The notes beneath the pieces were generated by a model. The model had not been told where the DNA came from and did no database searches. It was given only the letters and a program-made list of their open reading frames with translations. Of a stretch of 64,000 bases of DNA, positions 497 to 54,181 are shown piece after piece. Numbering within the stretch: position 1 is the first letter of the stretch; each line of letters begins with the position of its first letter. Source of the stretch: a phage; assembly GCA_020773975.1 (NCBI GenBank), contig GCA_020773975.1_3638.1; one strand, 5' to 3'. A program made the translations under genes and the position numbers.

Positions 497-501
497 AATA
501 T

Positions 502-1251: not shown

Positions 1252-1257
1252 TTTTTA

Positions 1258-1337
1258 ATGAGAGTAGCGTAACTTCACTGGGTGAAGGCTGGCCTCCAAA
1301 ACCAGTGACTAAGAGGTTCGATTCCTCACTCTCGTGC
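1258..1337 (+). tRNA. tRNA-Trp (anticodon CCA), atypical D-arm, CCA not encoded
   Basis: Hand fold: acceptor ATGAGAG/CTCTCGT, anticodon loop CTCCAAA matching bacterial tRNA-Trp, T-loop TTCGATT; D region is long and forms a CTTCAC/GTGAAG hairpin. Confidence 0.5.
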
Positions 1338-1340
1338 AAA

Positions 1341-1416
1341 AGGGGATTAGCATAGTGGCCTAATGCAACGGGCTTTGACCCCGTGATCGGTTGTTCGAAT
1401 CAACCATCCCCTGCCA
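1341..1416 (+). tRNA. tRNA-Gln (anticodon TTG)
   Basis: Hand fold: acceptor AGGGGAT/ATCCCCT, anticodon stem ACGGG/CCCGT loop CTTTGAC, T-arm GGTTGTTCGAATCAACC, encoded CCA. Confidence 0.7.
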
Positions 1417-1425
1417 AGTTAAAAC

Positions 1426-1515
1426 GGAGAAGCAAATCGATTGGCGACGAAAACACATTGGAAATGTGCTGACTGGTAAAACGGATTGAGAGTTCGATTC
1501 TCTCCTTCTCCGCCA
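1426..1515 (+). tRNA. tRNA-Ser (anticodon GGA), class II
   Basis: Hand fold: acceptor GGAGAAG/CTTCTCC, anticodon loop TTGGAAA, long variable arm, T-arm GAGAG-TTCGATT-CTCTC, G73, encoded CCA. Confidence 0.6.
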
Positions 1516-1536
1516 GTTTTTAATTACTAAGGTATT

Positions 1537-1630
1537 GGAAGATTAACCCTAATTTGGTAAGGGGTCTCCCTGCTGAGGAGATAGTAACCCAGAAATGGGT
1601 GTGACAGTTCGATTCTGTCAGCCTCCTCCA
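1537..1630 (+). tRNA. tRNA-Ser-like (anticodon GCT), class II, acceptor stem imperfect
   Basis: Hand fold: anticodon stem TCTCC/GGAGA loop CTGCTGA, long variable arm, T-arm GACAG-TTCGATT-CTGTC plus CCA; 5' acceptor pairs with two mismatches, so 5' boundary uncertain. Confidence 0.4.
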
Positions 1631-1857
1631 AGTTATCTTTAATGTAGCTTGTTATTCTTACTTTAGCAGAGTAAATCTTCGGCAAGTGGCGGTAACCACT
1701 TTACCGATACCCCAGAGCAGTCCGCTCTTTACTGGCGTAAGTCAAACACTCATGATGGTCATGTAATCGTAATCTATCATTAGTGTGCCCTCCCTAGAGG
1801 GCTGTTGCGTATAGCTAATTATGTGCGAGTAATTAGCTATTTTAAAGATAATTTAAA

Positions 1858-1934
1858 GGATCTGTAGCCAAATGGTTTAAGGCACTCGACTTTTAATCGA
1901 GGGATTGTTAGTTCGAATCTAACCAGATCCACCA
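1858..1934 (+). tRNA. tRNA-Lys (anticodon TTT)
   Basis: Hand fold: acceptor GGATCTG/CAGATCC, anticodon stem CTCGA/TCGAG loop CTTTTAA, T-loop GTTCGAATC, encoded CCA. Confidence 0.75.
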
Positions 1935-1943
1935 AAATATTCT

Positions 1944-2034
1944 GGTTCTTTGACCGAGTGGTCGATGGTGACGGCCTGTTAAGCCGTTGGGAGGAATCTC
2001 CCCACCGAAGGTTCGAATCCTTCAGGAACCGCCA
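1944..2034 (+). tRNA. class II tRNA (Ser/Tyr-like body, long variable arm, G73) with anticodon GTT
   Basis: Hand fold: acceptor GGTTCTT/AGGAACC, Ser-like D-arm ACCGAGTGGTCGATGGT, perfect anticodon stem ACGGC/GCCGT with loop CTGTTAA, variable hairpin GGGAGG..CTCCC, T-arm GAAGGTTCGAATCCTTC, encoded CCA. Confidence 0.55.
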
Positions 2035-2120
2035 ATTCTTGACTTAATCAAGTCACAGATATCACCTAGCCAGCGATACCAGTTAGTAGATTCTGGGACA
2101 ATTAAAATCTACATCTCTCT

Positions 2121-2198
2121 CTGTCCGTAGCGCAGCTTGGGTAGCGCGGGTCACTTGGGATGATCAGGTCGTTGGTTCAAATCCAACCGGACAGACCA
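2121..2198 (+). tRNA. tRNA-Pro (anticodon TGG)
   Basis: Hand fold: acceptor CTGTCCG/CGGACAG, D-arm GCGCAGCTTGGGTAGCGC, anticodon loop CTTGGGA, T-arm GTTGG-TTCAAAT-CCAAC, encoded CCA. Confidence 0.7.
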
Positions 2199-2240
2199 AC
2201 AAACATATACATATCAAAGCAGAAATGTACAGAGGATACC

Positions 2241-2432
2241 ATGTTAACAGTTAAAGTCGTATCTCCAAATGATGAACAAATTTTTTGTGGCAAAATTGTT
2301 GGGTATTGTGCTCATCAAAAGTCTATAGCTATTTCAGGTATTGACCAAAAAGTGTTTTTGTCTGAGGATCAGACAGCTTATGTTATCAATGCCAATGGGA
2401 AAACTATTTCTGTGTATCGTGGAAAACCATAA
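2241..2432 (+). CDS. hypothetical small protein (about 63 aa)
   Basis: ORF track 2160..2432 trimmed to the internal ATG (MLTVKVVSPN) so it no longer overlaps tRNA-Pro. Confidence 0.35.
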   Translation: MLTVKVVSPNDEQIFCGKIVGYCAHQKSIAISGIDQKVFLSEDQTAYVINANGKTISVYRGKP

Positions 2433-2446
2433 CTGTTGATATAAAT

Positions 2447-2523
2447 GGGCGATTGATGGAATTGGTATACATGTCAGGCTTAGAACCTGAATTTTGGGGG
2501 TTCGAGTCCCTCATCGCCTACCA
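2447..2523 (+). tRNA. class I tRNA with anticodon TAG (would read CUA/Leu) and A73
   Basis: Hand fold: acceptor GGGCGAT/ATCGCCT, anticodon stem TCAGG/CCTGA loop CTTAGAA, short variable loop, T-arm GGGGGTTCGAGTCCCTC, encoded CCA. Confidence 0.5.
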
Positions 2524-2528
2524 ATCAT

Positions 2529-2604
2529 GTGACGGTAACTCAGTTGGTAGAGTGCCTTGCTGAAGACTAGGTGGTCACAGGTTCGAACCCTGTCCGTCAC
2601 ACCA
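2529..2604 (+). tRNA. tRNA-Phe (anticodon GAA)
   Basis: Hand fold: acceptor GTGACGG/CCGTCAC, D-arm CTCAGTTGGTAGAG, anticodon loop CTGAAGA, T-arm CACAGGTTCGAACCCTGT, encoded CCA. Confidence 0.65.
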
Positions 2605-2610
2605 AATTAT

Positions 2611-2689
2611 TGCAGAGTGGTGGAAATGGATTTACCATGTTAGGTTCATACCCTGAAGATTGCAGGTTCGACTCCTGCCTCTGCATCCA
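2611..2689 (+). tRNA. tRNA-Met (anticodon CAT; Met or lysidine-Ile)
   Basis: Hand fold: acceptor TGCAGAG/CTCTGCA, anticodon stem TTAGG/CCTGA loop TTCATAC, T-arm GCAGG-TTCGACT-CCTGC, encoded CCA. Confidence 0.6.
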
Positions 2690-3373: not shown

Positions 3374-4711
3374 ATGTTGCATGTTTTCAAAAAAGAAGAT
3401 TTTCAAAGAGAGTACGACATTTTGTGCTCTTTTATACCAAAAGGTGTTTATGATTTATTGTCGAAGCTGGATGTTAAGATAGCTGGCGGTGCAATAACCT
3501 CTTTGTTCTCTAATAGTAAAGTCAACGATCTTGATTTGTATTTCCCATCTTGGGAAAGCCTTGAGATATTCATTGCGTACATGATGGATAAAAATCTCTT
3601 AGGTGGAAAGTATGATTTAGCCGCACAGACAAACGGATGGGGAAATCAAAAAAGAACTTTTAGGTATTTTTATAACCTTGATAATGGGCAGGGTTCTCAT
3701 TTAGGTTTCACAGATCCTTTGTCAAGATGTAAAAATCTTCATTTTGAAGATGAAGATCTTCCAAACCTTACCAGAGTTGGTGTAACCGATAAGAGTGTGA
3801 TGCTGTACTTTGGGAAAGACCCTGTATTACAGTGTGTTGCTGTGGATGTGTTCAAAACAACAGAAGATATCTTTAGCAAAGTTGATTTTACAATCAACAT
3901 GGGCGCTTTTAACTTCAAGGATGGTGTGTGGGAATTTGATAGCAATTTCTTAAAACATATTGCTCAAAGGGTTTTAGTTGTAAATCATAAGACTGAATAC
4001 CCGATTATATCACTTTTGAGATCTGAAAAATATAAATCTCGTGGTTATACAATTTCGAAAAAAGAGACAATGAAACTGGCTATGACCATTGCTAGCCTTC
4101 AGATACAAAGTTGGGAATCGGCAAAGTCACATCTTAGCGGGATGTACGGAATGAAACTGTCTGATATCTTTGATGAGACAAAGCCGTTTTCACTTGATTT
4201 TTTGGTTGAGTGTCTAGACAGATTAGAATCTGGTTGCCAGCAGATAGACAAAAATGTTACCCCTGTGCAACCGTTGCCGTTTAATGATGTGTCCCAAGTT
4301 AATATGTTCAGTATTTTCCAAAGATTAAGAAAAGCAACAGGCAGGAAATACTTTACAAAACTATATGGGGTTTGTCCTGCTGAAGTTTTCTATCTTATGA
4401 TGCCAACAAAAGATACACATTATGTTGGGCTTCACAAAGAAGATATAGCAAATAATTTTCCAACTCTCAGACTTTATGTTGATGAAACGGAGGCAAGAGG
4501 AGAGTACAAAATTCTGTGTGAGAACGGAGAGATAGATGGCTATGGGTTTACAATATATCGGCCAGGTGCAGTTCTGTTAAAGGTTTCTGTAAGCGATACG
4601 TCAAAGATCCAATACGATATAGGTTATTTTAATGATTTGTGTATTTCTGAAAACAGAAAAACAACACTGAAAATTGAAAACATTATTGAGTGTGATGGGG
4701 ATATATCATGA
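3374..4711 (+). CDS. putative tRNA nucleotidyltransferase-like (CCA-adding/poly(A) polymerase family) protein
   Basis: ORF trimmed to ATG after AAGGA RBS; head motif KIAGGAITSLF...NDLDLYF aligns with GGAVRD...DxD, and SKVDFTINMGAF aligns with RRDxTINA at matching spacing. Confidence 0.5.
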   Translation: MLHVFKKEDFQREYDILCSFIPKGVYDLLSKLDVKIAGGAITSLFSNSKVNDLDLYFPSWESLEIFIAYMMDKNLLGGKYDLAAQTNGWGNQKRTFRYFYNLDNGQGSHLGFTDPLSRCKNLHFEDEDLPNLTRVGVTDKSVMLYFGKDPVLQCVAVDVFKTTEDIFSKVDFTINMGAFNFKDGVWEFDSNFLKHIAQRVLVVNHKTEYPIISLLRSEKYKSRGYTISKKETMKLAMTIASLQIQSWESAKSHLSGMYGMKLSDIFDETKPFSLDFLVECLDRLESGCQQIDKNVTPVQPLPFNDVSQVNMFSIFQRLRKATGRKYFTKLYGVCPAEVFYLMMPTKDTHYVGLHKEDIANNFPTLRLYVDETEARGEYKILCENGEIDGYGFTIYRPGAVLLKVSVSDTSKIQYDIGYFNDLCISENRKTTLKIENIIECDGDIS

Positions 4712-5109
4712 TATGGTTTAAAACGCTGTTAACTTTCTTTTCTAAGAACATAAAACAGATAGGTGTTGTTTTGTGTTGTGTGATGCTCGTTTGGGGTGTT
4801 GTGGAGATAAAGCATTGGTATAATGACCAGTTAACATCGTCATACAACGCAGGTGTCAGCGACACTGATCTTAAATGGGAGAGGATTAACCAGCAAGTTC
4901 GGGATCATAATAACGCTTTTAAAAAACAACAGCAGGATAAGATCGATGAGTTGTCAACCATGTTGGTGAAAGAGAGAGAAATTAATAACCAACTGAAAGA
5001 AGACCTTGATAAAAAGGTTAAAAGTTATAGCAAAACACAAGCAGGAAAACAGGTTTGCCTAGATAACCAGTTTGTTGATATTTATAACGATAGTCTGGGG
5101 GTGAAATGA
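4708..5109 (+). CDS. putative i-spanin (Rz-like)
   Basis: N-terminal TM helix followed by charged coiled-coil-like periplasmic domain; overlaps next gene start. Confidence 0.5.
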   Translation: MIWFKTLLTFFSKNIKQIGVVLCCVMLVWGVVEIKHWYNDQLTSSYNAGVSDTDLKWERINQQVRDHNNAFKKQQQDKIDELSTMLVKEREINNQLKEDLDKKVKSYSKTQAGKQVCLDNQFVDIYNDSLGVK

Positions 5110-5399
5110 AAAAGTGTGTCATCATGGTTCCTTTTCTATTATTGATGTTAATAGGGTGCACTTCACCACCTGAGAGAGTTGTTCCTGTTGCAAAAGAGAT
5201 CATAATAAGCGATATCTTAGCAAGACCACCCGCTGAGGCTATGATACCACCGAAAGAACCTGAAAAATTGCCAGGTGGTCTTAGTAATGCAGATGCTATC
5301 GAGGTGATTAAGAAAAACAACATTAAGGCTGCTGAAGATCGTATGAGATTAAGAACGTTACAGCAGTATGTGAAGACAATATTTTCTTCAGATAAGTAG
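5106..5399 (+). CDS. putative o-spanin (Rz1-like), proline-rich signal-peptide protein
   Basis: Signal peptide ending LIGC then Pro-rich mature region; immediately follows the i-spanin candidate. Confidence 0.45.
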   Translation: MKKCVIMVPFLLLMLIGCTSPPERVVPVAKEIIISDILARPPAEAMIPPKEPEKLPGGLSNADAIEVIKKNNIKAAEDRMRLRTLQQYVKTIFSSDK

Positions 5400-5407
5400 T
5401 TGACAAT

Positions 5408-5440
5408 GCCCTTATTTAATGATAAGGGCTTTATTTTTAT
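5408..5440 (+). terminator. rho-independent terminator
   Basis: GCCCTTAT...ATAAGGGC hairpin followed by T-run. Confidence 0.55.
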
Positions 5441-5494
5441 CGTTATTCGTGGTAAACTACCTTCTATGGTAGGAATAGAAAATATGGAGGTCTT

Positions 5495-6841
5495 TTGAGT
5501 AAAGTATTTGGACCTGCCAGTCCTAAACAAAAAATGATTTTGGAGAGTAAAGCCCAAATTCTAATAATTGGCGGGGCCGCCGGGTGTTTGTCTAAAGACC
5601 ACGAGGTGTTGACACCATCTGGCTGGATTAAGATATCAGAATGGTCAGGGCAGGACATTCTGCAATATGATAAAGCCACTGGGGAGGCTAAATTTATCCC
5701 TCCTTTAGAGTTTGTTAAACTCCCTTGCGACAAACTTACAAGAATAGAAGGTAATGGCATTTGTCAAGAGCTATCTGACGAACATACTGTGATTTATAAA
5801 CCAGACTATAAATCACAGCCAAGAACACTTTCTTTTTCTGAAGTGGCAGAAAGACATAACAACTCTGTTAAAAAAGGTTGGACAGGTAAGTTCATAACTA
5901 CATTTAACTATGATGGGCCTGGGATAGACATGACAGAAGGGGAATTAAGGCTTCAGGTTGCTGTCATGGCTGATGGGAGAGTTGTTAAAGAAGGGAAAGA
6001 TAATTATACACAGATGCGCTTTGCTAAAAAGCGTAAATATGACCGCTTAATCGAACTTTGTAAAAAGTTTGGATTAAGATATGAAGACAGAGGATCAAAA
6101 CCCAGTGAAAGATATACCACTGGGGAACAGTACGAGGTCATTGTATGGCCTAAATATCCTGATAAAAAATTTACAGAGAAATACTATCAGTGTTCAAATG
6201 AACAACTGGAGATAATACTTGATGAGATTTTTCATTGGGATGGTTCTTTTTGTAAGCCATATGGCGGTAAAACACATAACAGCTTTACAGGTAGATATTT
6301 TACTGCTCATAAGACGAACGCTGATTTTATTCAGTTTGTAGGATCTTCTCTTGGTTATAATACCACCATAAGCCATGACACAAGAAGTGGAAAGGACAGT
6401 TATACTGTTAATATTATGGCTAGAGGAAAAGGATTAAGGTCACTGGCTAATAAAGACAGAAAAGCTGAGTTTAAAGCGTTTACACCTACGGATGGGTTTA
6501 AATACTGCTTTGTAACACAAACAGGTTTCTTTGTTACCAGACTGGAAGATTGTGTGGTTGTCACTGGGAATAGTGGAAAATCATATCTCCTACAATTGAT
6601 GCCGCTTGCTTATGTCGATGACCCGCAGACAGCATGTATAATGTTTCGTAGGACAACACCTCAATTGACAGGTGCAGGTGGACTTTTTGATACAGCGAAA
6701 AGTATTTATTTGCAACTCGATAAGGAATGGAAGCCGAAGTTCAGGGAGAAAGCTCTGGAAGCAATTTTCCCATCTGGGGCAAAGGTGTTGTGGAGACACA
6801 TGGAGTATGAGAATAACAAATTAGATCATCAGGGTGAATAG
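5495..6841 (+). CDS. terL: terminase large subunit, N-terminal coding segment (P-loop ATPase) containing an in-frame intein
   Basis: TTG start after GGAGG RBS; Walker A split as IIGGAAG-[intein]-SGKSY; lies directly upstream of portal; ORF runs to a stop inside intron-like sequence, real exon end probably 6817-6829. Confidence 0.7.
   Translation: MSKVFGPASPKQKMILESKAQILIIGGAAGCLSKDHEVLTPSGWIKISEWSGQDILQYDKATGEAKFIPPLEFVKLPCDKLTRIEGNGICQELSDEHTVIYKPDYKSQPRTLSFSEVAERHNNSVKKGWTGKFITTFNYDGPGIDMTEGELRLQVAVMADGRVVKEGKDNYTQMRFAKKRKYDRLIELCKKFGLRYEDRGSKPSERYTTGEQYEVIVWPKYPDKKFTEKYYQCSNEQLEIILDEIFHWDGSFCKPYGGKTHNSFTGRYFTAHKTNADFIQFVGSSLGYNTTISHDTRSGKDSYTVNIMARGKGLRSLANKDRKAEFKAFTPTDGFKYCFVTQTGFFVTRLEDCVVVTGNSGKSYLLQLMPLAYVDDPQTACIMFRRTTPQLTGAGGLFDTAKSIYLQLDKEWKPKFREKALEAIFPSGAKVLWRHMEYENNKLDHQGE
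5585..6571 (+). mobile_element. intein (329 aa) with LAGLIDADG-type endonuclease motifs in the terminase P-loop
   Basis: Starts with Cys (CLSKDHEVLTPSGW), ends VVVTGN followed by Ser; internal LQVAVMADG and LDEIFHWDG motifs; removal restores GGAAGSGKS. Confidence 0.7.
6809..6817 (+). repeat. 9-bp direct repeat GAGAATAAC (copy 1) flanking the terminase intervening region
   Basis: Identical 9-mer at 8778-8786; joining the copies puts exon 1 and the C-terminal segment in frame (MEYENN-PDYLAF). Confidence 0.5.
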
Positions 6842-7537
6842 CTTGCCCTTCGTGCCTATAACGGTGGAACTCCCTATGGGAAAATACCGTGCCACAGAAT
6901 ATGGAAATATAAACTCTGGGTGTAACGACTATCTCCGATGAGTGTAGGAGAGTAGAATCACAAGCGATTGGTGATCCAAACGGCACGCCAAGGATGGAAG
7001 ATATAGTCTGTTCCACATGGAAACATGTGGCGGGTGTTTTAGCACACCGCCTCAGTGTAGCGAACTGAGGGGACAATAAGTTGCAATATACCTTTATAGG
7101 TTTCGATGAGGGTAGAACAGTGTGCTCTCTATAAACCCCTTTAATTGACGGGTAACTCTTTATACATATCACCACTAAGTAGGTATGGTAACATATTTAT
7201 GGTCAACGGTAATGACGTTGAGTATAGTAACAGTGTGAATGTTTAGACAATCCGCAGCGAAGCATCCCTACGGGATGAACGTTCAACGACTATCGCTTAC
7301 GGGCGTTAGGGCCAAGCGGTGAGGGAAACCTCCGGTTGATTATCAACCGCCGAAACAGGGGGGTGTGTAATAACACACAAGATATAGTCTGATCTGCATG
7401 GTGACATGCAGCAGCACGTAGTGGTGCGGGATAAGAGTAGCGATCTTATCTGAACAAAAACGACACAATTCACATGGTCACAGATAGATTATCTGATATC
7501 TCGTCTACGTTCAAACTCTAAATATCCGAGCAGGATG
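6830..7537 (+). mobile_element. group I intron-like intervening sequence(s) in terminase, no ORF
   Basis: Conserved core elements: P-like AATTGACGGG (7143), Q AATCCGCAGC (7250), R GTTCAACGACTATC (7282), S AAGATATAGTCTGATC (7379); a second R/S-like pair at about 6926 and 7003. Confidence 0.55.
7381..7430 (+). repeat. 50-nt intron core block (S element to P9 region), copy 1
   Basis: GATATAGTCTGATCTGCATGGTGACATGCAGCAGCACGTAGTGGTGCGGG; second copy at 8674-8723 with 2 mismatches. Confidence 0.7.
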
Positions 7538-7773
7538 GTTATCTCTTGTAACCCTGATCCAGATCATAAGATCAAGGAGTTGATTTCTTGGTATTTAGAT
7601 GATGAGGGATATCCTATACCTGAACGCGATGGGGTGATTAGATGGTTTATAAGACGTGACGGGGAGTTTATCTGGGGTGAATCAGAGCAAGAATTAATTG
7701 AAAAGTATTGGGATGGCAAGGATGAGAAAAGAAAGCCTAAACCACTTTCATTTTCCTTCATTTCCGCAACCAT
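7538..7773 (+). CDS. possible internal terminase exon (or co-converted exon fragment), about 79 codons
   Basis: Open frame between intron-like regions (VISCNPDPDHKIKELISWYLDDEG...FISAT); LISWYLDDE resembles a Walker B strand; begins right after an intron-terminal ATG and ends at CCAT before a GTGG guide-like sequence; frame relation to downstream segment unresolved. Confidence 0.3.
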
Positions 7774-7902
7774 TAAAAGAATAGTGGCTTCATGCAGTAA
7801 TGCATGTCGAATAACTTCGTTAATTGCTGGGAAACCCTTTGTATAAGGGCAATCAGCAGCTATAATTACTTTTCCGAAACTGTAGTAGGGAGAATGTTTG
7901 AG

Positions 7903-8589
7903 ATGAAAAATTTAGGATTTTTAGGGTATTCCCATTATTGTGCGACGTATGATGGAAGAATTTATAGTTTGTATTCCCACAAATTTTTACATCCTAATGT
8001 CCATAAGAAAACTGGCTATGCAATGTTAACGTTGTGTGAGGATGGTAAAAAGTTTCAAGTTCTTGTCCATAGGGTTATTGCTTTTGCTTTTGTCGAGAAT
8101 GATAGCCCTGATACAAAAACTCAAGTGAACCATTTAGATGGAAACAAACTTAATAACGCAGCGTGGAATCTTGAGTGGACAACTGCAAAGGAAAACACAC
8201 ATCACGCACATGAAATAGGGCTTAAGAAGTCTTATGTAAACAGTTACAGGCCTCTTGATGATAACACTGCCCTTGAGATATGCAGATTACTTGAGCAGGG
8301 TGCTAGAGTAAAGGATATCAGTGAGATGTTTGGTATTGGGCAGACTGTGGTTAGTAGTATCAAAGCTGGGAGAGTCTACCCAGACATTTCTAAAGAGTTT
8401 AATTTCAGGATGGTTCCTTCTTCCAACAGAATTAGTGAATCCAAAGTTATAGGGATATGTGAAGATCTGAGAGACGGTATCCTAAGCATTAATAAGATAT
8501 CTAAAAAATGGGGTGTTAGTTTTAATCTTGTTAGAAGAATAAAAGATAGAAAAACTTACATCTATATCTCAAACAACTATGAATGGTAA
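7903..8589 (+). CDS. intron-encoded HNH homing endonuclease
   Basis: ATG 9 nt after GGGAGA (alternative ATG at 7894); N-terminal GYSHY..YDGRIYS NUMOD-like motif, HNH signature VNHLDGNKLNN...NLEW...ENTHHAH, C-terminal helix-turn-helix-like repeats. Confidence 0.65.
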   Translation: MKNLGFLGYSHYCATYDGRIYSLYSHKFLHPNVHKKTGYAMLTLCEDGKKFQVLVHRVIAFAFVENDSPDTKTQVNHLDGNKLNNAAWNLEWTTAKENTHHAHEIGLKKSYVNSYRPLDDNTALEICRLLEQGARVKDISEMFGIGQTVVSSIKAGRVYPDISKEFNFRMVPSSNRISESKVIGICEDLRDGILSINKISKKWGVSFNLVRRIKDRKTYIYISNNYEW

Positions 8590-8673
8590 TGTAGTTCAAC
8601 GACTATCCCGCAAGGGAGTAGATCGCAAGCTAATGGCGTTCGAAAAGCGAAGCACCCATTATGTGTGGGTGGT

Positions 8674-8723
8674 GATATAGTCTACTCTGCATGGTGACAT
8701 GCAGCAGCACGTAGTGGTGCGGG
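8674..8723 (+). repeat. 50-nt intron core block, copy 2
   Basis: GATATAGTCTACTCTGCATGGTGACATGCAGCAGCACGTAGTGGTGCGGG; near-identical to 7381-7430. Confidence 0.7.
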
Positions 8724-8771
8724 GGTTGGCGTTGCGTCCAACCTTGAATACAAGGATTCGATAATCCTCCC

Positions 8772-9557
8772 ATGCTGGAGAATAACCCAGATTATCTAGC
8801 ATTCCTTGAAGGTCTTCCAGAGGTAGAAAAAGCCCAGTTGTTGCATGGGAACTGGAACGCAAGACCTGAAGGGGCAAACTATTTCCAGAGATCTTATTTA
8901 AAAGAGGTTCCCTGCTTACCTCTCGGTGTTGTATCTGTTCGCCCGTATGATAAAGCAGGTACAGAAAGAACATCTGGAAACAGATATCCTGACTTTACAG
9001 CATCTGTTAAGGTAAGTAAAGACAATGATGGCTTTTACTACTTGTCTGGTGATTATTGTCCTGAATTTTTTGATGATGGTAGATATTCGACTCAAACGCA
9101 GGGAAGATTCTGTAAAAAAGCTGGGGAACGTGATGTTATCATTAAGAAACAGGCTTATTTTGATGGTGATGATGTCACTATAATTTTCAGTGTTGACCCA
9201 GGACAAGCAGGAATAAGTGAATTTTTAACAAGCTCTCGTGAACTAATAGCGGAAGGGTTTACAGTAGAAAAAGATCCTACACCAAGCAATAAATCAAAAT
9301 TAACACGATTCACACCGTTTGCAAAACTTGCTCAAGCAGGTATGGTGAGAATAGTTCGTGATAGTTTTGATCCTAAAACTTATGAAGCCCTTATGACAGA
9401 GCTTGAAAAGTTCAATGGGGAAAGGAGTACGACGACAAGAAAAGACGATTGGGTCGACGCCATTTCTTCTGGGATAAATTATCTTGAAAAAGAAGAAATA
9501 GTCAAACCTGTTGTTATTCCAAAAATTGTAGCTCCTACCTTGTATAAAAGAATATAA
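8772..9557 (+). CDS. terL: terminase large subunit, C-terminal coding segment (nuclease domain)
   Basis: ORF track; VTIIFSVDPGQAG and DDWVDAISSG resemble terminase nuclease acidic motifs; in frame with exon 1 across the GAGAATAAC repeats; real 5' boundary probably 8775-8790. Confidence 0.6.
   Translation: MLENNPDYLAFLEGLPEVEKAQLLHGNWNARPEGANYFQRSYLKEVPCLPLGVVSVRPYDKAGTERTSGNRYPDFTASVKVSKDNDGFYYLSGDYCPEFFDDGRYSTQTQGRFCKKAGERDVIIKKQAYFDGDDVTIIFSVDPGQAGISEFLTSSRELIAEGFTVEKDPTPSNKSKLTRFTPFAKLAQAGMVRIVRDSFDPKTYEALMTELEKFNGERSTTTRKDDWVDAISSGINYLEKEEIVKPVVIPKIVAPTLYKRI
8778..8786 (+). repeat. 9-bp direct repeat GAGAATAAC (copy 2)
   Basis: Identical to 6809-6817; see copy 1. Confidence 0.5.
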
Positions 9558-9572
9558 CAGAGGGGATAATTC

Positions 9573-11114
9573 GTGTCAACAAGATTTGCACAACAAGAAG
9601 AGATTTCTAAAGCAGGTAATGAGAGACTTGCTGTTAGTCGTCTTCGCACCGGAGAGTTAGGCTCTGGTGCTCTTTCTCAACTTAGGGCTGAATCAGAGAT
9701 TATGAAAGTTAAGGAGTTGAGATGGCCTAATTTCATCGCCACTGTTGAAGCCATGAAGCAAGACCATACAGTTTCCACAGCCCTTGATACAAAGTATGTC
9801 TTTGTAACTAAAGCATTCAATGATTTTAAAATCTTGTATAACAGAGATAGCAGAAAATCTAAGAAAGCTGCTGAGTTTGTGGAGTATGCGCTGAAGAATC
9901 TTGCTAACCAACAAACTCTACGTGACATAGCCCGAAGCGCAGCAACGTTCAATGAGTATGGGTTTTCGATATTTGAAAAAGTTTATCGTACTGAGCCAGA
10001 GACTTCAAGGTATGCTGGGTATATTACGATTGATAAAATTGCATTCAGGCCACAGTGCAGTCTTTCTAGATCAAAGCCTTGGGTATTTGATGCCGATGGT
10101 AAGACGCTGAAGGGCATTAACCAAAGCAGTTTGGCTTTCTCCAATTTACAAAACGGAATGCTGGGGGATACTTTAAACATTATCCGTAAATTGACTAATG
10201 GTGATGATGTTTTTATTCCAGTTAATAAGTTGATGATAATGAGTTTGGGGGGTACGGAATCCAACCCTGCTGGGTTATCACCTTTGGTTGGTTGTTATAG
10301 GGCATTCCGAGAGAAGATCCTTATAGAAAATTTGGAGACTATCGGAGCATCTAAAGATCTTGGTGGTATCATAGAACTTAAGATACCCTCCCAGATCCTT
10401 AATAAAGCAGCAATAGACCCAACATCACCAGAAGCTGCTATGGTGCAAGGACTAATGGCAGATGCTGCAAACGCACACGCTGGGGAACAAGCCTATTTTA
10501 TCTTACCATCTGACCTCAATAATCAAGGTGGTAAACAATATGAAATGTCCCTTAAAGGGATCGATGGCGCAGGTAAACAATACAGCACACAAGAGCTTGT
10601 TAACTCTCGCAAGAAGGCTATTCTTGATCGTTTTGGTGCGGGGTTTATTAACTTAGGTAACGATGGGCAAGGATCTTATAATCTTTCAGAATCAAAACAA
10701 ACTATTCATGGTCATTTTGTCCAGAGAGATATTGATATTATTGTTGAGGCGTTCAATAAGAACTTAATACCTCAACTTCTTGCTTTGAACGATATAAGAT
10801 TGTCTGACGAAGATATGCCAAGACTGAAACCTGGGCTTATTCAAGAAGTCGATATGGAAGGCTTCTCTAAATTTGTTCAGCGTATTGGTGCTGTTGGGTA
10901 TTTGCCTAAAACACCTACAGTTATTAATAAAATTCTTGAGGTTGGTGGCTTTGACGAAGAAATCCCTGAAGATATGGAGCTTGATGAATTGTTGCAAATT
11001 CTTGGTCAGGATGTAAGCCGTTCTGGAGATGGTATGACACCAGGATCAACAGGTAACGGAACATCAAAAATATCTACTGTCAGGGATAATTCTGTTTCTA
11101 ATTTAGAGAATTAA
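9573..11114 (+). CDS. putative portal protein (513 aa)
   Basis: GTG start after GAGGGGA; size and position immediately downstream of terminase; acidic C-terminal tail. Confidence 0.5.
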   Translation: MSTRFAQQEEISKAGNERLAVSRLRTGELGSGALSQLRAESEIMKVKELRWPNFIATVEAMKQDHTVSTALDTKYVFVTKAFNDFKILYNRDSRKSKKAAEFVEYALKNLANQQTLRDIARSAATFNEYGFSIFEKVYRTEPETSRYAGYITIDKIAFRPQCSLSRSKPWVFDADGKTLKGINQSSLAFSNLQNGMLGDTLNIIRKLTNGDDVFIPVNKLMIMSLGGTESNPAGLSPLVGCYRAFREKILIENLETIGASKDLGGIIELKIPSQILNKAAIDPTSPEAAMVQGLMADAANAHAGEQAYFILPSDLNNQGGKQYEMSLKGIDGAGKQYSTQELVNSRKKAILDRFGAGFINLGNDGQGSYNLSESKQTIHGHFVQRDIDIIVEAFNKNLIPQLLALNDIRLSDEDMPRLKPGLIQEVDMEGFSKFVQRIGAVGYLPKTPTVINKILEVGGFDEEIPEDMELDELLQILGQDVSRSGDGMTPGSTGNGTSKISTVRDNSVSNLEN

Positions 11115-47183: not shown

Positions 47184-47492
47184 CATCAGTTCAGAGAGTT
47201 CGTTACGCTCTCCCGCACCATTACGTGCATAGCCACAAGATTTCTCCTGTGGGTCGGACTATCTCATCCTCCTGATATTAAGGAGGCCTCCCGTTTCGAC
47301 CGCACTTGCTGGCCTACTCTACTCGCTTTCACATTACTAGTGTGCTTTCGATAGTCTCTGAACGTTCATCCCATAGGGATGCTTCGCTGCGGATTAGCAT
47401 ATTGAACTTTTGCTACTTTTACGTATAAAAGCCAGCTTAGCCTTCCCGTCAATTAGAGAGGTTTTCGACATGCATTACTGCATGAAGCCACA
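47184..47492 (-). mobile_element. group I intron (about 309 nt, no ORF) in the DNA polymerase gene
   Basis: On coding strand: exon ends CCAT, GTGG guide-like sequence 10 nt in, P AATTGACGGGAA, Q AATCCGCAGC, R GTTCAGAGACTATC, S GAGATAGTCC, terminal G before GATGAG; splicing restores VIYYH-DEIQV. Confidence 0.6.
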
Positions 47493-49913
47493 ATGTTATT
47501 TATGGTAGTAGATAACCCTCCTGACACCTTGGTCGTACCATCCCCATTTCACCAATTCCCAATGGAACAGGACTCCCATGAGGTCAAACAATGAAGCACC
47601 ACCGTTTTGTTGGTAAGCATTCAGCAGAGAATGTTTAGAACGAGTCCAAATTTTACGCCCGTCCATGCCTGGAATATAGCGTCTCCCATTTGCCTCCCAG
47701 AATTTTTCCAACCACTCCCTACGCATTTTCAACCCGAAGTTACTATCCCAGAATGCATCTATTACAGCCTGTGCTCTATTAAGGGGGATACCCAGCATTG
47801 CGGCTATCTTAGGAGCTTGTGCTCCATACATAATTCCATACGTAACCCCCTTTCCTCCAGAGCGTGTTACCTCCTTTCCTGCTGCTATTGTGTATGCTCT
47901 TGCGTTTCGTTCATGGGCATCCTCTTCCATCATGATACGTAAATACTCACCACCATCAAACTCAAAAGCCCCTGCCGCTGCAATCATACCTTCTAAGTTA
48001 GATCCATCACAACCCATCAGGTAGTAGCCTTCAGGGACTGTCCAAAGACCCCGCATTTCTTTTCCCAACAAAACCTTCGGATCAGGCTTGGGCATGTTTG
48101 CGCAAACAGTATGCTTGCACCTGCCCGTGTTAGTGATTCCAGAAAAACGTGCTGGAAGTTTTCCGTCAATGTCTAAACGAGGGTGATTTAATAACCCTGT
48201 ATCCGTCTTATCCTCATCCATTGGGTCTAAAACAGATCGCCTGTTACGAAGTGATAGCCACTTAACAATCTGTTTTGCCATATGCACATCAATTTTCTCC
48301 AAATTTGGACACAGATGCCCAAAATTATCTTTTAATTGAGGAGATGTCGGTAACTGGCGTGCTTTACGCCGAAATTTCTTAAATATCTCTGAATAACCCC
48401 TTTCAGATGCATGGCGATGGTCAAACTTACGCTCTGAAATGTTGAATTTCTCATCTGAATCATTAAGGTAGTCAAGAATAAGAGATTTATACTCAGACTC
48501 TGCCAACTCTTCTATGTACTTCTTAACTAGTACATCAATTTCAGAATCTTCACGAGTCTTTTTAAATTGATCCTTAGTAACATCTTTTACGCGCCACAGT
48601 GTAGGTTTCCAACCAGCATCTTTGATCAAATATTTTTTAATATCATCCTGATTAGAGATTTTCATTGGAACCATTAAATCTGGCATTTTTCTGTTTCGAA
48701 GGTCTTCTTTAGCCTTCTCTAGAAGATCCGGCGGTAAAGGTTCGAGTGTGTTCTCTTTGGTTCGCTGGGAACGAATGAAATCACCGTATAAAGCCGGATC
48801 TTCAATGCCATTCTGGATGCAATATCTCTCCCCTGCTGCACTTACATCCCCATTGCTCTTAAAAGCTGTTTTTGGTGGAGCTTTAAACTCCAGAGCTTCC
48901 CTGTTAACAGGATAGCCAAGTTTATATTCCAACCAATTCCACCCATGATGAGATATATTACCCGCTGTGTCAAAAGGGTTAGCTGGGAATTTTGGTTGTT
49001 GAGATTTCGTCATCTCTTTTTTTGGAAGAAGTGGTTCTACCTCTTCTTCAATTTCTCGCATCATCTTATCTATGCGATCTCTTAATTTTTCTGCCTCCTC
49101 CCGATTAAAGTATACGCCTTGTATTTCTTGCTCTATCATCAAATAGTCTGTGAGCATTCTCCTACGTAATGCATTTTTCCAATTAATCTGGTGCATCCCG
49201 TGAGGTTTATCAGTGTACATAAACTGCTTGTCATCAGGCCATCGCGTACCATTTGACTCATCAATAAGAGCTTTCCACACAAGTTCGTTAATGATAACGT
49301 CTTCCCACACACGGTTTACATATTCCCACAATGGCTGATTACGCCAATCATCAATCTGCACTTTCTTGTTTGCTACACGATAACCCCATGCCAATAAGCC
49401 GTGTGGCCCAACCCTGTCACGTTTTCCTGTTACAGGGTTCAATACAGAATCTGGGCAGCCATTAGGCAATGGGCGATCTGGGTAAAGAACACGACTCATT
49501 GAAAGAGTGTCGTAAAGATTTACCTGTTTATTACCTATCGTCCCCATACATTTTAGGTCTTTGAACATGTCATATTCAATCCCAGAAAGTTTTTTCCACA
49601 GACGTAAATCATAGCCGAACAGGTTATGTATTGCTATCCCTCTTGGCTCGGTCTGCAACCAAGAGTAAAAATCATCATAAGAAAGGATACGTAAATTAAC
49701 ACCTTCTTTGCTGCGTGCAAAATTAACTGCACTCTGGTATTCCTTGTGAGCAGGATCGAGAAACAACACCCAGTTATTTACAGCATATTCTTTAAAAAGT
49801 GTGCAGTGATATTTAGTTGCCTCTTCTAATAATCCGTCAGCTTCGTTATCTCCGACAAAAAGCCCTTTCATACTCCTCCTATTCAAGATGGGCTTGACTG
49901 TATCGTCGCCCAT
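47493..49913 (-). CDS. DNA polymerase (family A), exon 1
   Basis: Pol I-like motif B RSGGKGVTYGIMYG and pre-motif C NAYQQNGGASLFDLMGVLF...RRVIYYH; ORF track stop lies within the intron. Confidence 0.7.
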
Positions 49914-50066
49914 CTCTTAGTTGGTTATAGATTATGTGGAAAACTACCTATTTTTGATTTATGTTTCTTTGCCAAAGGGCTTCTCTTGGCGGGAATGTAC
50001 CCCTCAAGCCCCTTGGCAACACGAATAGCTAACTCATCATATTTTACATGTATCCTCTTTTTTCTC

Positions 50067-53039
50067 TCAAAATGGAGAATCGCTATCTAAATCTTCAGGT
50101 TGCTCAATCACAACAGCAGGTTCTTGTTGAGGAACAGAAACAGCAATTTTCCCCACAGGTGTTTCAAGTTCCAGACTTTGAATCATTGATTTAGGTCTTA
50201 GCATTACCTCCCCGTTGAGTTTAAACATATTGTCTTCCCACACCCATCCTGACGCATCAGAAAACTGACCATTATCATCCATAATCAGGGTATCCGCTAT
50301 GCCTAATTTTTTGTGTGGACGGTTTTTCAAAACAACACTACGAATACGCCCACGAGATCGGTCAGGGAGTTCTTCAGGCTCGACACCTAAGACAACCCAC
50401 GATAACTGTTCGAGTGCTGCACTATTTCCTGTGACAAAAATATGTCCGTTGCGGCGTGCCACCCACATACCGGATGGTAATGTAAAGCAATACTTGCGAC
50501 CATCTGGGGAAGGTACACGTTTAATAGAAGATTTATTTTTCCCTCCTTTACGTATATGCATATACTTTGTGGCACAAACTCTTACTACATACAGAGGTTT
50601 GTGATCATATTTACCATCAAACGCACCATTGCCATTTTTTACAACAGACACAGACGTTCTATGCCCACAAGCACTGTAAGCAAATTGTAGGAAATCTGCC
50701 TCAAATTTGTTAATGGTTGATACCCTGTTTCTGTTTACAGAATCACCATCCCAATACATGACTTCATCACAGATAATCTCCAACTCGTGCTGTTTAAGAT
50801 TAAACCATTCCTTTGTCACCCCTTTATACCCACAAGGGGCTTTAAATTGGTACTCTGTTCTGCCTTCATGCTTCCCGTGCAAATCAAAACTCTTGTAAGG
50901 AGTGTTCGTCTTCTTCAGTAGCATCTCAAGGCGTTGTTTCTTACGTTCTTTTTTGATGCGTACAGCTACCCTTCCCGTTGATTCAGTAAGAACCGTCCCA
51001 TCAGCATTTACAGCTATCTGTAAACGTAGTTGATCATCAGTTAACCCTAATGAACCATCACATCCAGTGGTGAATGTAGTAGGTATTTTACCACGCATAC
51101 CTGATCGTTTATTGGTATGGTCATGAACAACCTCCTGCATAGTTTTCATACGAAAAATATCAGGCGTTCGATCGTTTACATACACAACACGATGTTCATC
51201 GCTCAACATCATGTCTACAACATGGCTATTAGAAAGATGCCACATTTCATTACAAGGTAGATTAATGTACGCCTCGGGATTTACGAAGGTCATTACACCA
51301 TTTTTATCGTGTTGTGCAACCAAATCTCCTTCTACGTATTCATCAATACGTTTCCAGCCTTGCGGGGTTAAGAACTCTGTGCTTGCATCAACACAACCAC
51401 GGAGATCCTCTTTCCGCACAGGATACCAAAACGGTAACAAATTACCTTCTTTATCTTTCGGAATTTGTATATCAACACGCTTCATATGACTGATACTGAG
51501 GATAAACACGTCATATTTTTTGCAGAAGGCAGCCAATTCCGTCATGATGTTATCTAAATCTCTTCGCTCGTTATCGGATTTTAATCCTGATATCACCATC
51601 GATAAGTGATCTAAGATAATCCATCTACACCCATCAAGGAAAACCATCTGTTTCAATTTTTGTAGTAATTGGTCAGTTGGTATTGAACCAAAGTGATCGA
51701 AAATTTTAACCTTATCTTCGGCAATCCATCGTTGGTGTATAGCTAAGTGCTGCTCATCGGTAAGGAATTGTTCTGGGTCTGCAACAAATGCTTTCGGGTC
51801 AATCTTTAGCTCCTCAGCATATAAACTGTTTACAGACTCCTCCTCATCCTCCTCTAGACGAATAATTGCAATTTTCTCGTTCTCTTTCCAACCGTCTAAT
51901 CGGGGAATATCCATGTTACGGAGGTACTCGATAATTGCATACTCAATCTTTCTTGAGAAAGTTGATTTCCCAGCTCCAGATGGGCCTGTCAGTGTCCACA
52001 ATTCTCCTGTTCGTGGGCCTCTTGTTAGTTCATACAAACGAGGAAAGCACGGCAACGGAACGCCATCTTTTTTCTTTTTACGGAGATTTTCAATAGATAT
52101 TCTCTCCAACCCAATCAATTTGTCTGGAACATATTTATCCTGCGCTTTAGCAAACATATTCCAGATATCCATCCATTTACCTTTTTTGTAAATATCCCGG
52201 ATATCTTTAACACCATTTGGGTCATTGCGCTCATTTGGGTATCGTGCAACATAGATGTTGTCAGACAGTAAAAAACCTGCGACATCATCTGTGGCTTCCT
52301 TACCTTTCTTAATTCTGTGTTCTTTTTCCCTTGCTGTGGCTTCATCATTGTCTAAGCCAAGGACAATCTTTTCATATTCCCTGATAAACTTTTCGTTGTG
52401 GGCGAATGTATCCACAGCATTGGCTGTACCACAGTTCAACCCGATAAAAGGTAATGTCGGGCAATTAGAAACCTCTTCCCCATCCTGAATTGCTTTGATG
52501 CCTTTTAAAGCATTGTTTGCCCACTCACGTACTGAACGTGACGTGTTAGGATTGCTATGAAGGAATTTAATATACTCAAACCCAGCTTGCCAGCCAGCCG
52601 TTACATCACCTTCCCCCTCAACAATAAAGATCTGTTTTTTACCAGATCCCATAGAGGCCTCATGTTGACCAAAAAATTGAGAGGAAGCCTTTACTGTGCC
52701 AACAACAGAGAAATGCCCCTTTTTCTCTTTCGGAACAGTCCAGTCTCGTTTTTTGTACCCTGTCAATTTCCCATATTTGTCATAATATGGAAGATATGTT
52801 GCCACCACTGTAGTACCGTCTTTCAAATCTGTTGCAGATCTGATCTTGAAGTACTTAGCTGCATCTAAACTAATATCCATTTGGGGGACAGCCAAGATCC
52901 TTGTACTATCTAGGACAGACTCTACAGTTTCTTCTTCTTTTTTCTGATAATTCACTTTACCACCACTTTTTGTAGGTCGGAATGCTTTTGGGTTCTCACC
53001 TTCAAAGTATGCACCAGCCCCCCATTTTGTCATCTTCAT
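50067..53039 (-). CDS. primase-helicase (TOPRIM primase plus DnaB-like helicase) containing an intein
   Basis: TOPRIM IFIVEGEGDVTAGW, Walker A TGPSGAGKST, Walker B WIILDHLSMV, motif H4 split as DLRG-[intein]-SAALEQ. Confidence 0.7.
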   Translation of the reverse strand: MKMTKWGAGAYFEGENPKAFRPTKSGGKVNYQKKEEETVESVLDSTRILAVPQMDISLDAAKYFKIRSATDLKDGTTVVATYLPYYDKYGKLTGYKKRDWTVPKEKKGHFSVVGTVKASSQFFGQHEASMGSGKKQIFIVEGEGDVTAGWQAGFEYIKFLHSNPNTSRSVREWANNALKGIKAIQDGEEVSNCPTLPFIGLNCGTANAVDTFAHNEKFIREYEKIVLGLDNDEATAREKEHRIKKGKEATDDVAGFLLSDNIYVARYPNERNDPNGVKDIRDIYKKGKWMDIWNMFAKAQDKYVPDKLIGLERISIENLRKKKKDGVPLPCFPRLYELTRGPRTGELWTLTGPSGAGKSTFSRKIEYAIIEYLRNMDIPRLDGWKENEKIAIIRLEEDEEESVNSLYAEELKIDPKAFVADPEQFLTDEQHLAIHQRWIAEDKVKIFDHFGSIPTDQLLQKLKQMVFLDGCRWIILDHLSMVISGLKSDNERRDLDNIMTELAAFCKKYDVFILSISHMKRVDIQIPKDKEGNLLPFWYPVRKEDLRGCVDASTEFLTPQGWKRIDEYVEGDLVAQHDKNGVMTFVNPEAYINLPCNEMWHLSNSHVVDMMLSDEHRVVYVNDRTPDIFRMKTMQEVVHDHTNKRSGMRGKIPTTFTTGCDGSLGLTDDQLRLQIAVNADGTVLTESTGRVAVRIKKERKKQRLEMLLKKTNTPYKSFDLHGKHEGRTEYQFKAPCGYKGVTKEWFNLKQHELEIICDEVMYWDGDSVNRNRVSTINKFEADFLQFAYSACGHRTSVSVVKNGNGAFDGKYDHKPLYVVRVCATKYMHIRKGGKNKSSIKRVPSPDGRKYCFTLPSGMWVARRNGHIFVTGNSAALEQLSWVVLGVEPEELPDRSRGRIRSVVLKNRPHKKLGIADTLIMDDNGQFSDASGWVWEDNMFKLNGEVMLRPKSMIQSLELETPVGKIAVSVPQQEPAVVIEQPEDLDSDSPF
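50424..51395 (-). mobile_element. intein (324 aa) with LAGLIDADG-type motifs in the helicase domain
   Basis: Starts CVDASTEFLTPQGW, ends HIFVTGN followed by Ser; internal LQIAVNADG and ICDEVMYWDG; end blocks closely match the terminase intein. Confidence 0.7.
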
Positions 53040-53048
53040 CTCTTCTCC

Positions 53049-53240
53049 TTAGAAGGGTTTGCTAACTACAGCCATATACCAGCCATTACACACAGATATA
53101 CCACCTGAAATACAGTAACCTTTTCTAAACCAAGTGTTTAGCTTTAATTCTAATTCTGAAATACTAGTTCCTGTGAGAATCTTGACATTTTTATCCACCA
53201 GCCCTCCTAAAATCATTATATAGGAATACAGCTTTGGCAA
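53049..53240 (-). CDS. hypothetical small protein (63 aa)
   Basis: ORF track. Confidence 0.25.
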   Translation of the reverse strand: MPKLYSYIMILGGLVDKNVKILTGTSISELELKLNTWFRKGYCISGGISVCNGWYMAVVSKPF

Positions 53241-53913
53241 ATCCTCTTGGGGTTAACGATCTTATAACCTTTGTCTTTTTTGATTTACCACCCAATTTTA
53301 GGTGCTGCTCAGAATACCCGCTTACCACGGGAACAGGTAATTTCTCAGGCATCCTAAAACCATTGCCTGTCCACAAACAAGTCCTCTTAGGGTAGGCATC
53401 TCTGGGTTTTATGTATTCTGGAAAAAACGGATGAACATCATTCTCTGATAGATACCCGCCGTACTCATAAGGATGAAATGAATGATCTGGTTTACGCCAC
53501 AGAGAAGATAGAACACTAACAGGATTTTCTATCATGTAAGGGCAGTCGTATTCATCTGCCAACCTTGCTGCCACCTTTGCTGTATTTACAGCCTTTATCT
53601 GGAATAAAGGGTCTTTTGCAGCTTTTCTTGCGAAATGCGCTGCACCACTAACAGCCATGTCAGTACATGGTGGAGATGCGAATATAATACTTGGCTTACA
53701 GATCCCTATCTCTGTTGGGTTAAACTGGTCATCTATCCAAACATTAATGTATTCTATATTTTTATGTTTTACTCGGATACTTTCATAACCGCCGTGATCA
53801 GCGCCATCATAGTTAAGGCATATTACTTTGTACCCATTCTTTGCCCACTCATAACCCATGATGCCTGATCCGTCAAACATGTACAAAACCGTATCACTCA
53901 ATACACCTCCCAT
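53191..53913 (-). CDS. putative DNA methyltransferase-like protein (cytosine-5 MTase-like motifs)
   Basis: MFDGSGIMG resembles motif I (FxGxG), FASPPCTDMAVSG resembles motif IV (PPCQ with Thr for Gln), IENPVS resembles the ENV motif; shorter than typical C5-MTases. Confidence 0.4.
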   Translation of the reverse strand: MGGVLSDTVLYMFDGSGIMGYEWAKNGYKVICLNYDGADHGGYESIRVKHKNIEYINVWIDDQFNPTEIGICKPSIIFASPPCTDMAVSGAAHFARKAAKDPLFQIKAVNTAKVAARLADEYDCPYMIENPVSVLSSLWRKPDHSFHPYEYGGYLSENDVHPFFPEYIKPRDAYPKRTCLWTGNGFRMPEKLPVPVVSGYSEQHLKLGGKSKKTKVIRSLTPRGFAKAVFLYNDFRRAGG

Positions 53914-53959
53914 ACCAGAAAACAGGCCCGTAATGTGGGCCTTTTGAGTACACTAGAAA

Positions 53960-54181
53960 TCAATGCAATGCTGTATGGACAGGAGTTCCATCTGCACCGT
54001 ATGGAATGTCTTGCACTTGGGAATGCTTTCTCACTAAAGTATACACCAGCCAACCTTCAGCTTCATGCTGTCCTGCAATGTCATAGCCATCATCAAGAAG
54101 TTCAGCCAGTTTGCTCTCTACTTCTTCTCTTTTTGTTTTGCTAATTTTGAACTCAATGAGTTTAACAGTGTTTTTAACCAT
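53960..54181 (-). CDS. hypothetical protein (73 aa)
   Basis: ORF track. Confidence 0.3.
   Translation of the reverse strand: MVKNTVKLIEFKISKTKREEVESKLAELLDDGYDIAGQHEAEGWLVYTLVRKHSQVQDIPYGADGTPVHTALH

Follow-up and report, generated by a model that had tools for sequence, protein, structure and literature searches.

Inteins in the helicase and terminase genes

The 64,000-nucleotide stretch of phage DNA analyzed here (GenBank assembly GCA_020773975.1, contig GCA_020773975.1_3638.1; hereafter, the window) carries two in-frame insertions with the features of inteins, one in a primase-helicase gene and the other in the gene for the terminase large subunit (TerL). The source of the stretch is an Avunavirus (Vequintavirinae) phage of Escherichia coli. 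Its helicase-polymerase region (48000-54000) has 96.3% DNA identity to Escherichia phage Av-05 and 95.7% to the four marmot-associated Avunavirus phages that were compared (24-2-1, 18-1-2, 19-1-2, and TH18), and over its terminase region (4500-10500) the identity is 97.6% to the marmot phages and 95.6% to Av-05. A hidden Markov model of the intein family described below, run on a six-frame translation, recovered only these two copies within the window.

The helicase gene (50067-53039, minus strand) encodes a T7-gp4-like primase-helicase precursor of 990 amino acids (aa). The N-extein of the precursor matches the Pfam families DnaB_C (1.3e-10) and AAA_25 (8.8e-8) at residues 332-521, and the equivalent gene is annotated "DNA primase/helicase" in Av-05 and 24-2-1. 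The 324-aa intein (50424-51395, minus strand, as are all its parts) occupies precursor residues 549-872, runs from CVDASTEF to IFVTGN, and is followed by Ser+1. Its N-terminal HINT lobe (~aa 1-108, 51072-51395) contains the block A Cys1 and the block B motif S65-x-x-H68, and was delimited from the secondary structure of the model and from residue conservation among 180 aligned family members (C1 in 179 and H68 in all 180); here the family profile matches residues 12-91 of PDB entry 6zgq (E 3e-8). The LAGLIDADG endonuclease domain (~aa 109-285, 50541-51071), placed by model secondary structure, Foldseek, and conserved Asp residues, includes the motifs LQIAVNADG (aa 125-133, 50997-51023, ending AVNAD132G) and ICDEVMYWDG (aa 208-217, 50745-50774, ending MYWD216G). 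The C-terminal splicing lobe (~aa 286-324, 50424-50540) has K-Y-C303-F, R314, and V-T322-G323-N324, and the codon of the block F Cys (C303) lies at 50487-50489. Without the insert, the exteins join as EDLRG|SAALEQLS, which we take to be the equivalent of LRGSGALRQLS in T7 gp4 and which corresponds to motif H4 of DnaB/gp4-type helicases. Since the helicase of Av-05 is a 666-aa protein with the same motif uninterrupted (KESLRGSAALEQLS), the insert is a discrete, precisely bounded, and optional element.

The first exon of terL (open reading frame 5495-6841, plus strand) ends near 6835, as mapped by tblastn against an intein-trimmed full-length TerL, and the gene is annotated "terminase large subunit" in relatives. 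Its 329-aa intein (5585-6571, plus strand throughout) runs from CLSKDHEV to VVVTGN (Thr327-Gly328-Asn329), again followed by Ser+1. The N-terminal splicing lobe (5585-5908) contains Cys1 and S-D-E-H67. The LAGLIDADG endonuclease domain (~aa 109-292, 5909-6460), assigned from the model, Foldseek, and the conserved D130 and D219, has the motifs LQVAVMADG (5951-5977, ending AVMAD130G) and ILDEIFHWDG (6215-6244, ending FHWD219G), and the C-terminal lobe (6461-6571) reads K-Y-C308-F ... V-T-G-N329, with the block F Cys (C308) encoded at 6506-6508. Removal of the insert joins the exteins as IIGGAAG|SGKSYLL, the Walker A motif. The same intein is 97.9% identical in the four marmot-associated records.

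An earlier note on this DNA, made from the letters alone, had located both inserts at these positions, and its coordinates and insert ends are exact. It had also placed each in a nucleotide-binding motif; for DnaB-family helicases, however, motif H4 is characterized in the literature not as such a motif but as a loop that binds DNA, and as a known intein site (PMC6195587).

Homology and predicted structure of the inteins

The two inteins align end to end in BLASTP (133 bits, E 4e-41, 31% identity over 344 columns). Because the alignment spans the first to the last residue, the similarity takes in the endonuclease part and not only the generic splicing blocks. Both inserts are in frame, and their removal restores GGAAG|SGKS and DLRG|SAALEQLS. 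Both have an N-terminal Cys1, a block B SxxH (H68 in the helicase intein and H67 in the TerL intein), a C-terminal Asn (N324 and N329), and Ser at +1.

AlphaFold2 models built on 26-sequence alignments had a predicted local distance difference test score (pLDDT) of 93.1 and a predicted template modeling score (pTM) of 0.91 for the helicase intein, and 91.6 and 0.90 for the TerL intein. A HINT fold is present in both models. Foldseek comparison of either model with the PDB placed endonuclease-containing inteins on top (TliVMA, PhoVMA, PI-SceI, and PI-PfuI), with best E values of 5.8e-13 for the helicase intein and 7.6e-15, to the TliVMA intein, for the TerL intein. When the middle domain was searched alone, it matched I-DmoI, I-Tsp061I, I-SceI, and WhiA; the endonuclease domain of the helicase intein matched I-DmoI with E 2e-6 and a template modeling score of ~0.56 by target, and the matches of the TerL intein domain include I-Tsp061I and I-DmoI. 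The helicase intein model shows the alpha-beta-beta-alpha-beta-beta pattern twice, as in a pseudo-dimeric LAGLIDADG endonuclease. Two LAGLIDADG helices ending in Asp-Gly are present in both inteins, and the Asp is conserved in 177 (first helix) and 174 (second helix) of the 180 family members. Both inteins are full-length and, as far as their sequences indicate, probably active. The proposal of the earlier note, that homologous LAGLIDADG inteins interrupt the terminase and the helicase, is thus upheld by the pairwise alignment that it had suggested as a check, by the fold models, and by the conserved residues.

A large intein family in phages

To survey relatives, 50,697 phage records were searched by tblastn; 316 of them contained relatives of the helicase intein, and 331 contained relatives of the TerL intein. 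Host genes of the family encode terminases, primase-helicases (Pseudomonas phage KIL1), PhoH (Acinetobacter phage AM24 and many Vibrio phages), RtcB ligases (PS119XW, Bacillus phage JBP901, and Corynebacterium phage Lederberg), RecD-like helicases, the alpha and beta subunits of ribonucleotide reductase (RNR), nicotinamide phosphoribosyltransferase, mycobacteriophage primases (Turj99, annotated "intein-containing topoisomerase primase"), and others. A profile was built from 18 trimmed inteins and searched exhaustively against 1.84 billion representative proteins. At E-value cutoffs of 1e-3, 1e-10, and 1e-30, it matched 14,155, 7,960, and 1,770 proteins, respectively; the pool at the last threshold comprises at least 1,770 clusters at 50% identity, in unrelated phages. 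Protein searches with a word index had little sensitivity (11 and 23 matches), and the exhaustive profile search was needed to reveal the family. Several proteins hold two full-length family inteins. In public records, the host proteins are often called as over-long "hypothetical", "PhoH", or "terminase" proteins, as in the relatives P0053, P0173, P0033, and P0037.

The insertion sites of 172 full-length copies, taken from the top 150 profile matches plus earlier matches, were tabulated. The preferred site is G|[STC]GK[ST] in Walker A (149 of the 172 copies), and the helicase site (D/N)LRG|S..(E/K)Q accounts for a handful.

One segment of the TerL intein, EGELRLQVAVMADGRVVKEGKDNYTQMRF.K.RKY.RL (5936-6070, plus strand), which covers the first LAGLIDADG helix and a hairpin, recurs in nearly identical form in inteins that interrupt different genes. 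The TerL intein and the KIL1 helicase intein agree there at 28 of 30 positions, compared with ~40% elsewhere, and this version of the segment also occurs in the PhoH intein P0025 but not in the window's helicase intein. The pattern suggests either module exchange between inteins or very strong constraint.

Active-site signature

Both inteins end in GN|S, as the earlier note had pointed out. This terminus is not special to the pair, being a hallmark of the family: the penultimate residue (G:6) is Gly in 175 of the 180 members, the preceding residue (G:5) is Thr in 167, and the terminal Asn is invariant. A penultimate Gly is compatible with efficient splicing in the mycobacteriophage Bethlehem RDF intein, which splices fully with it and is slowed by the substitution G316H (PMC5050341). 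That intein is a distant relative of the family (E 2e-4) and reads ..V-W-C-L-R-V...HLTGN|S.

Block F reads K-Y-C-F, with Cys at F:4 in all 180 members, a position that is usually Asp in standard inteins (PMC2807308). Around F:13 there is no His but V, I, or L, and R314 is conserved in 179 of 180. By its N-terminal nucleophile, Cys1, which is found in both inteins as in nearly all of the family, each would be a class 1 intein, although the usual class 1 helpers (Asp F:4, His F:13, and His G:6) are missing in both; these helpers are typical of class 1 and not strictly defining (PMC2807308). The catalytic triad of class 3 inteins consists of Cys F:4, His B:10, and Thr G:5 (PMC7664689). Of the WCT triplet seen in class 3 inteins, Cys F:4 and Thr G:5 are present, and B:12 has Val instead of Trp, with V, I, M, or F as the residues that the family shows at this position. 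The class 3 hallmark of having no N-terminal nucleophile is absent, since Cys1 is near-invariant; class 3 inteins that retain Cys1 or Ser1 have been described (PMC2807308, PMC5222942). By these residues, the family appears to be one in which a class 3 catalytic triad is set within a formally class 1 intein that has kept Cys1.

When the family profile was compared with all PDB sequences, the top match was a class 3 split intein, AceL NrdHF (6zgq). It is described as having S65, H68, M70 in place of Trp, C124, T144, and N146; although neither of the two His residues is present, it splices within minutes, and a class 3 route has been demonstrated for it (PMC7891396). A tblastn search with its N-fragment recovers members of the family studied here. 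As judged from its native exteins, SIRDE | SMHVE, its insertion point in RNR beta follows the same Glu and precedes the same x-x-His as that of the Cys1-bearing NrdB inteins of Pectobacterium phage PcCB7V and Vibrio phage C-ZP2022, which read FSE|CLAEGTEVLT...NHRM...VRCLE...VTGN|TIHS.

Homing footprints among close relatives

Among phages that are 95.7-96.3% identical over the region, the helicase site is present in three states: with the intein of the window, with a different intein in the marmot phages, and empty in Av-05. The marmot helicase intein (24-2-1, L002:2568-5495, minus strand) is 308 aa long (CLNGYVEF...VFVTGN|S) and interrupts the identical codon. Within the family it groups elsewhere, its nearest matches being in terminase-like proteins at GP(I/L)G|SGK. 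Its identity to the window's helicase intein is no more than 31.6%, and its divergent flanking tracts are separate; two lineages therefore invaded one helicase site independently.

With the inteins removed, the three helicase genes differ at 65-105 of ~2,000 positions, and the differences are clustered at the site. Between Av-05 and the window, 13 substitutions fall within the 37 bp directly 5' of the insertion point (window 51396-51432, minus strand), compared with 65 in 2,001 nt overall (binomial P ~8e-11). This cluster changes one amino acid only (D to S), and 3' of the insertion point the two phages are identical over 134 bp. The marmot allele has divergent tracts of its own, at -94 to -37 and +14 to +122. 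These differences look like co-conversion tracts together with a recoded, possibly cleavage-resistant empty site.

The TerL intein of Av-05 (L004:2354-3484) is a mosaic relative to window positions 5585-6571. Identity to the window is 97-100% in two parts, the first ~290 nt of exon 1 (to about intein codon 67) and everything that follows alignment column ~960 (intein codon ~290). Between these parts, the endonuclease region has ~55% identity and large deletions that remove the first LAGLIDADG half. The boundaries of the exchange fall close to block B and shortly before block F. A mosaic of this kind is expected for the decay stage of a homing cycle, which the Av-05 intein would represent.

Origin and mode of action

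The earlier note had suggested that the pair arose by intra-genomic spread or by repeated acquisition from one source. If an intein had moved ectopically between the TerL Walker A site and the helicase H4 site in this lineage, the two copies would be direct paralogues. In favor of this view, they belong to one family and lie in one genome, the junction is Gly|Ser in each case and the +1 codon AGT, the centers of the sites read GG(T/G)|AGTG, and multiple occupancy occurs in the family, in which two-intein proteins are common. When similarity was ranked by all-against-query BLASTP among the 180 members, however, the TerL intein was the 167th closest to the helicase intein and the helicase intein the 155th closest to the TerL intein, so that each has more than 150 closer relatives and the two are among the most distant pairs of the family. 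The closest relatives of the helicase intein are at the same site in other DnaB_C proteins (P0053, 77% identity, NLRG|SAAIEQ; P0173, 41.5%, DLRG|SAGLEQ), and those of the TerL intein are TerL inteins at GAAG|SGKS, from 99% down to 49% identity. In a neighbor-joining tree (Kimura distances, 309 columns, 200 bootstraps), the helicase intein is nested in a clade of the H4 site (bootstrap 100 and 84.5) and the TerL intein in a clade of the TerL GAAG|SGKS site (bootstrap 100, 91, and 86). Over 42 bp centered on the Gly|Ser codons, the two target sites agree at only 16 positions, a likeness that we judged uninformative as a sign of ectopic transposition. Further, Av-05 has the TerL intein yet an empty helicase site, and the marmot phages pair the same TerL intein with a different helicase intein. 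Given the similarity ranks and the separate site-specific clades, intra-genomic spread is not supported, and we regard it as highly improbable. The data instead fit two independent site-specific acquisitions, presumably by homing from allelic sites in related phages, with neither intein copied from the other. The idea of repeated acquisition is thus retained, with the source being not a single donor but the broad pool of clusters in unrelated phages.

We consider it very probable that the window holds two inteins of the same family in core genes, both capable of splicing and homing and each acquired independently. Under this model, each intein would be translated in frame inside its host protein, after which the HINT domain would excise the intein and ligate the exteins, rebuilding Walker A (GGAAG-SGKS) and H4 (LRG-SAALEQ). 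Cys1, the block B His, the block F Cys, the block G Thr, the terminal Asn, and Ser+1 would be available for these steps, and the two His residues that usually aid Asn cyclization are absent from both inteins. In a mixed infection, the embedded two-motif LAGLIDADG endonuclease would cut intein-less alleles, and repair off the intein-bearing genome would copy the intein plus flanking sequence. Endonuclease decay and recoding of the site would come later. The population footprints are observed, and they suggest homing.

Several points weigh against this picture. Neither insert matched Pfam (E<=0.1) or NCBIfam (E<=1), and since these libraries are blind to them, the family assignment rests on structure prediction and on our own profile. 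Splicing by the two inteins we infer from conserved residues and from relatives tested by others; their DNA cleavage we infer only indirectly, from the presence/absence polymorphism, the divergent flanking tracts, and the empty site with its clustered substitutions. The backbone of the family tree has bootstrap values of 12-25, with support confined to shallow clades, and an ancient jump between the TerL and H4 sites may have taken place somewhere in the family. The substitution cluster of Av-05 could be a scar of recombination with a divergent allele rather than the result of selected endonuclease resistance. Single-sequence searches of the inteins against PDB sequences likewise gave no match, and matches in PHROGs arise only via intein-bearing PhoH and RNR families. 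A mini-intein construct compared with the PDB yielded spurious matches only and was set aside. The missing Pfam and NCBIfam matches reflect a gap in the libraries rather than evidence against the HINT fold.

That standard intein models recognize neither insert, and that the penultimate His is missing, would also be in keeping with dead relics, in which one or both inserts no longer splice and the host proteins are either non-functional or work while interrupted. This seems most improbable, because neither copy has lost any splicing residue that is invariant in the family or either acidic residue of the LAGLIDADG helices, and because the frames stay open over 324 and 329 codons within two core genes of a type of phage that has been isolated as a viable virus. 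Without splicing, TerL would have no intact Walker A and the helicase no intact H4, and the GN-ended relatives (Bethlehem RDF and AceL NrdHF) splice well. A different question concerns the chemistry of splicing by intact inteins. The block F Cys (C303 or C308), helped by the block B His and the block G Thr, might attack the N-terminal junction in a class 3-type route, either as the sole route or as an additional one, with Cys1 being redundant or auxiliary. The triad described above and the likeness to AceL NrdHF suggest such a route, and for the Cys1-bearing family this reading is drawn from sequence. The retention of Cys1 in 179 of the 180 members argues for its use in splicing, Trp at B:12 is replaced by V, I, M, or F, and the related RDF intein was treated as class 1 by Kelley et al. 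(PMC5050341). We therefore view the class 3-type route as rather unlikely and the near-invariant Cys1 as a residue that probably matters for splicing.

Introns and other features of the window

Besides the intein, terL (5495-9557, plus strand) is broken by three group I introns. Intron A (~6836-7080) is a sub-threshold Rfam match (33.8 bits) and is absent from Av-05. It is followed by a micro-exon of ~33 nt (~7081-7113) that codes only for the Walker B motif LQYTFIGFDEG, and by intron B (~7114-7456; RF00028, 67.9 bits). The next exon (7457-7774) is separated from the last exon (8757-9557) by intron C (7775-8756), which carries an HNH_3 endonuclease open reading frame (7804-8589). In this layout, Walker A is split by the intein and Walker B stands alone between two introns. 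The family A DNA polymerase gene is also split, since a group I intron (47236-47511, minus strand; RF00028, 81.2 bits) lies at the end of its open reading frame (47496-49913). Ten tRNA genes are clustered at 421-2686 (plus strand), upstream of the packaging module. The packing of inteins, introns, and homing endonucleases into Vequintavirinae genomes has already been documented, and the genome of CB7 has three inteins and 23 endonucleases (PMC7344957).

Relation to known inteins and implications

Terminase P-loops and helicase H4 motifs are established hot spots for inteins (PMC5050341, PMC4760082, PMC6195587). The DnaB H4 inteins of site "a" (Msm DnaBi2 and Mtu DnaB; PMC6195587) resemble the helicase intein of the window in being inserted in H4 by a conserved Gly/Ser and in having an endonuclease domain. 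Their hosts are cellular DnaB proteins, unlike the gp4-like primase-helicase here, and the likeness drawn here is at the level of the motif. The mycobacteriophage inteins TerL1-a and TerL1-b (PMC5050341) are also LAGLIDADG inteins within the Walker A of the TerL ATPase; TerL1-a lies between the Walker Lys and Thr, whereas the TerL intein of the window lies two residues upstream (G-A-A-G|S-G-K-S).

Within the family, the TOPRIM intein of mycobacteriophage Turj99 gp53 is 26-28% identical to the window inteins over the full length, and the Bethlehem RDF/phosphoesterase intein (Kelley et al. 2016, PMC5050341) shares the GN|S end, splices efficiently, and has an endonuclease that is toxic to E. coli. 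Both differ from the window inteins in host gene, insertion site, and host bacterium, and their identity is low. The class 3 "DnaB" intein of Bethlehem was also sought, in AY500153, in which the annotated DnaB-like gene is too short to hold such an intein. AceL NrdHF-1-1 (6zgq; Hoffmann et al. 2020, PMC7891396) has the same active-site signature as the present family, save for Ala1. In nature it is split, and a free-standing GIY-YIG gene separates its two halves, whereas the window inteins are contiguous and have Cys1 and a LAGLIDADG domain. The structurally solved LAGLIDADG inteins PI-SceI, PI-PfuI, TliVMA, and PhoVMA are more distant, with 11-15% identity and extra DNA-recognition regions. 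They presumably have the usual Asp at F:4 and the penultimate His. With Turj99, KIL1, and Bethlehem RDF already annotated or studied, the two inteins are ordinary additions to a known family, and their pairing in one genome is unremarkable.

The three-state helicase site and the endonuclease-decayed TerL intein form a natural experiment that illustrates the homing cycle and possibly escape at the target site. The family also exposes an annotation blind spot, as its thousands of members are unseen by Pfam and NCBIfam. If functional, the combination of Cys1 with a class-3-like active site bears on how class 3 splicing arose. It is conceivable, and we put this forward tentatively as a less favored view, that the two inteins are part of a very large superfamily, carried mostly by phages and missed by standard domain libraries, in which Cys1 is combined with the class 3 triad, both His residues of Asn cyclization have been lost, and either nucleophile may be usable. 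Loss of Cys1 would then be a single viable step. If true, this would favor an origin of class 3 inteins in phages by divergence over the convergent, protease-derived origin proposed previously (PMC7664689). The same combination, if functional, also points to fast-splicing, His-independent inteins, which could serve as tools for protein engineering.

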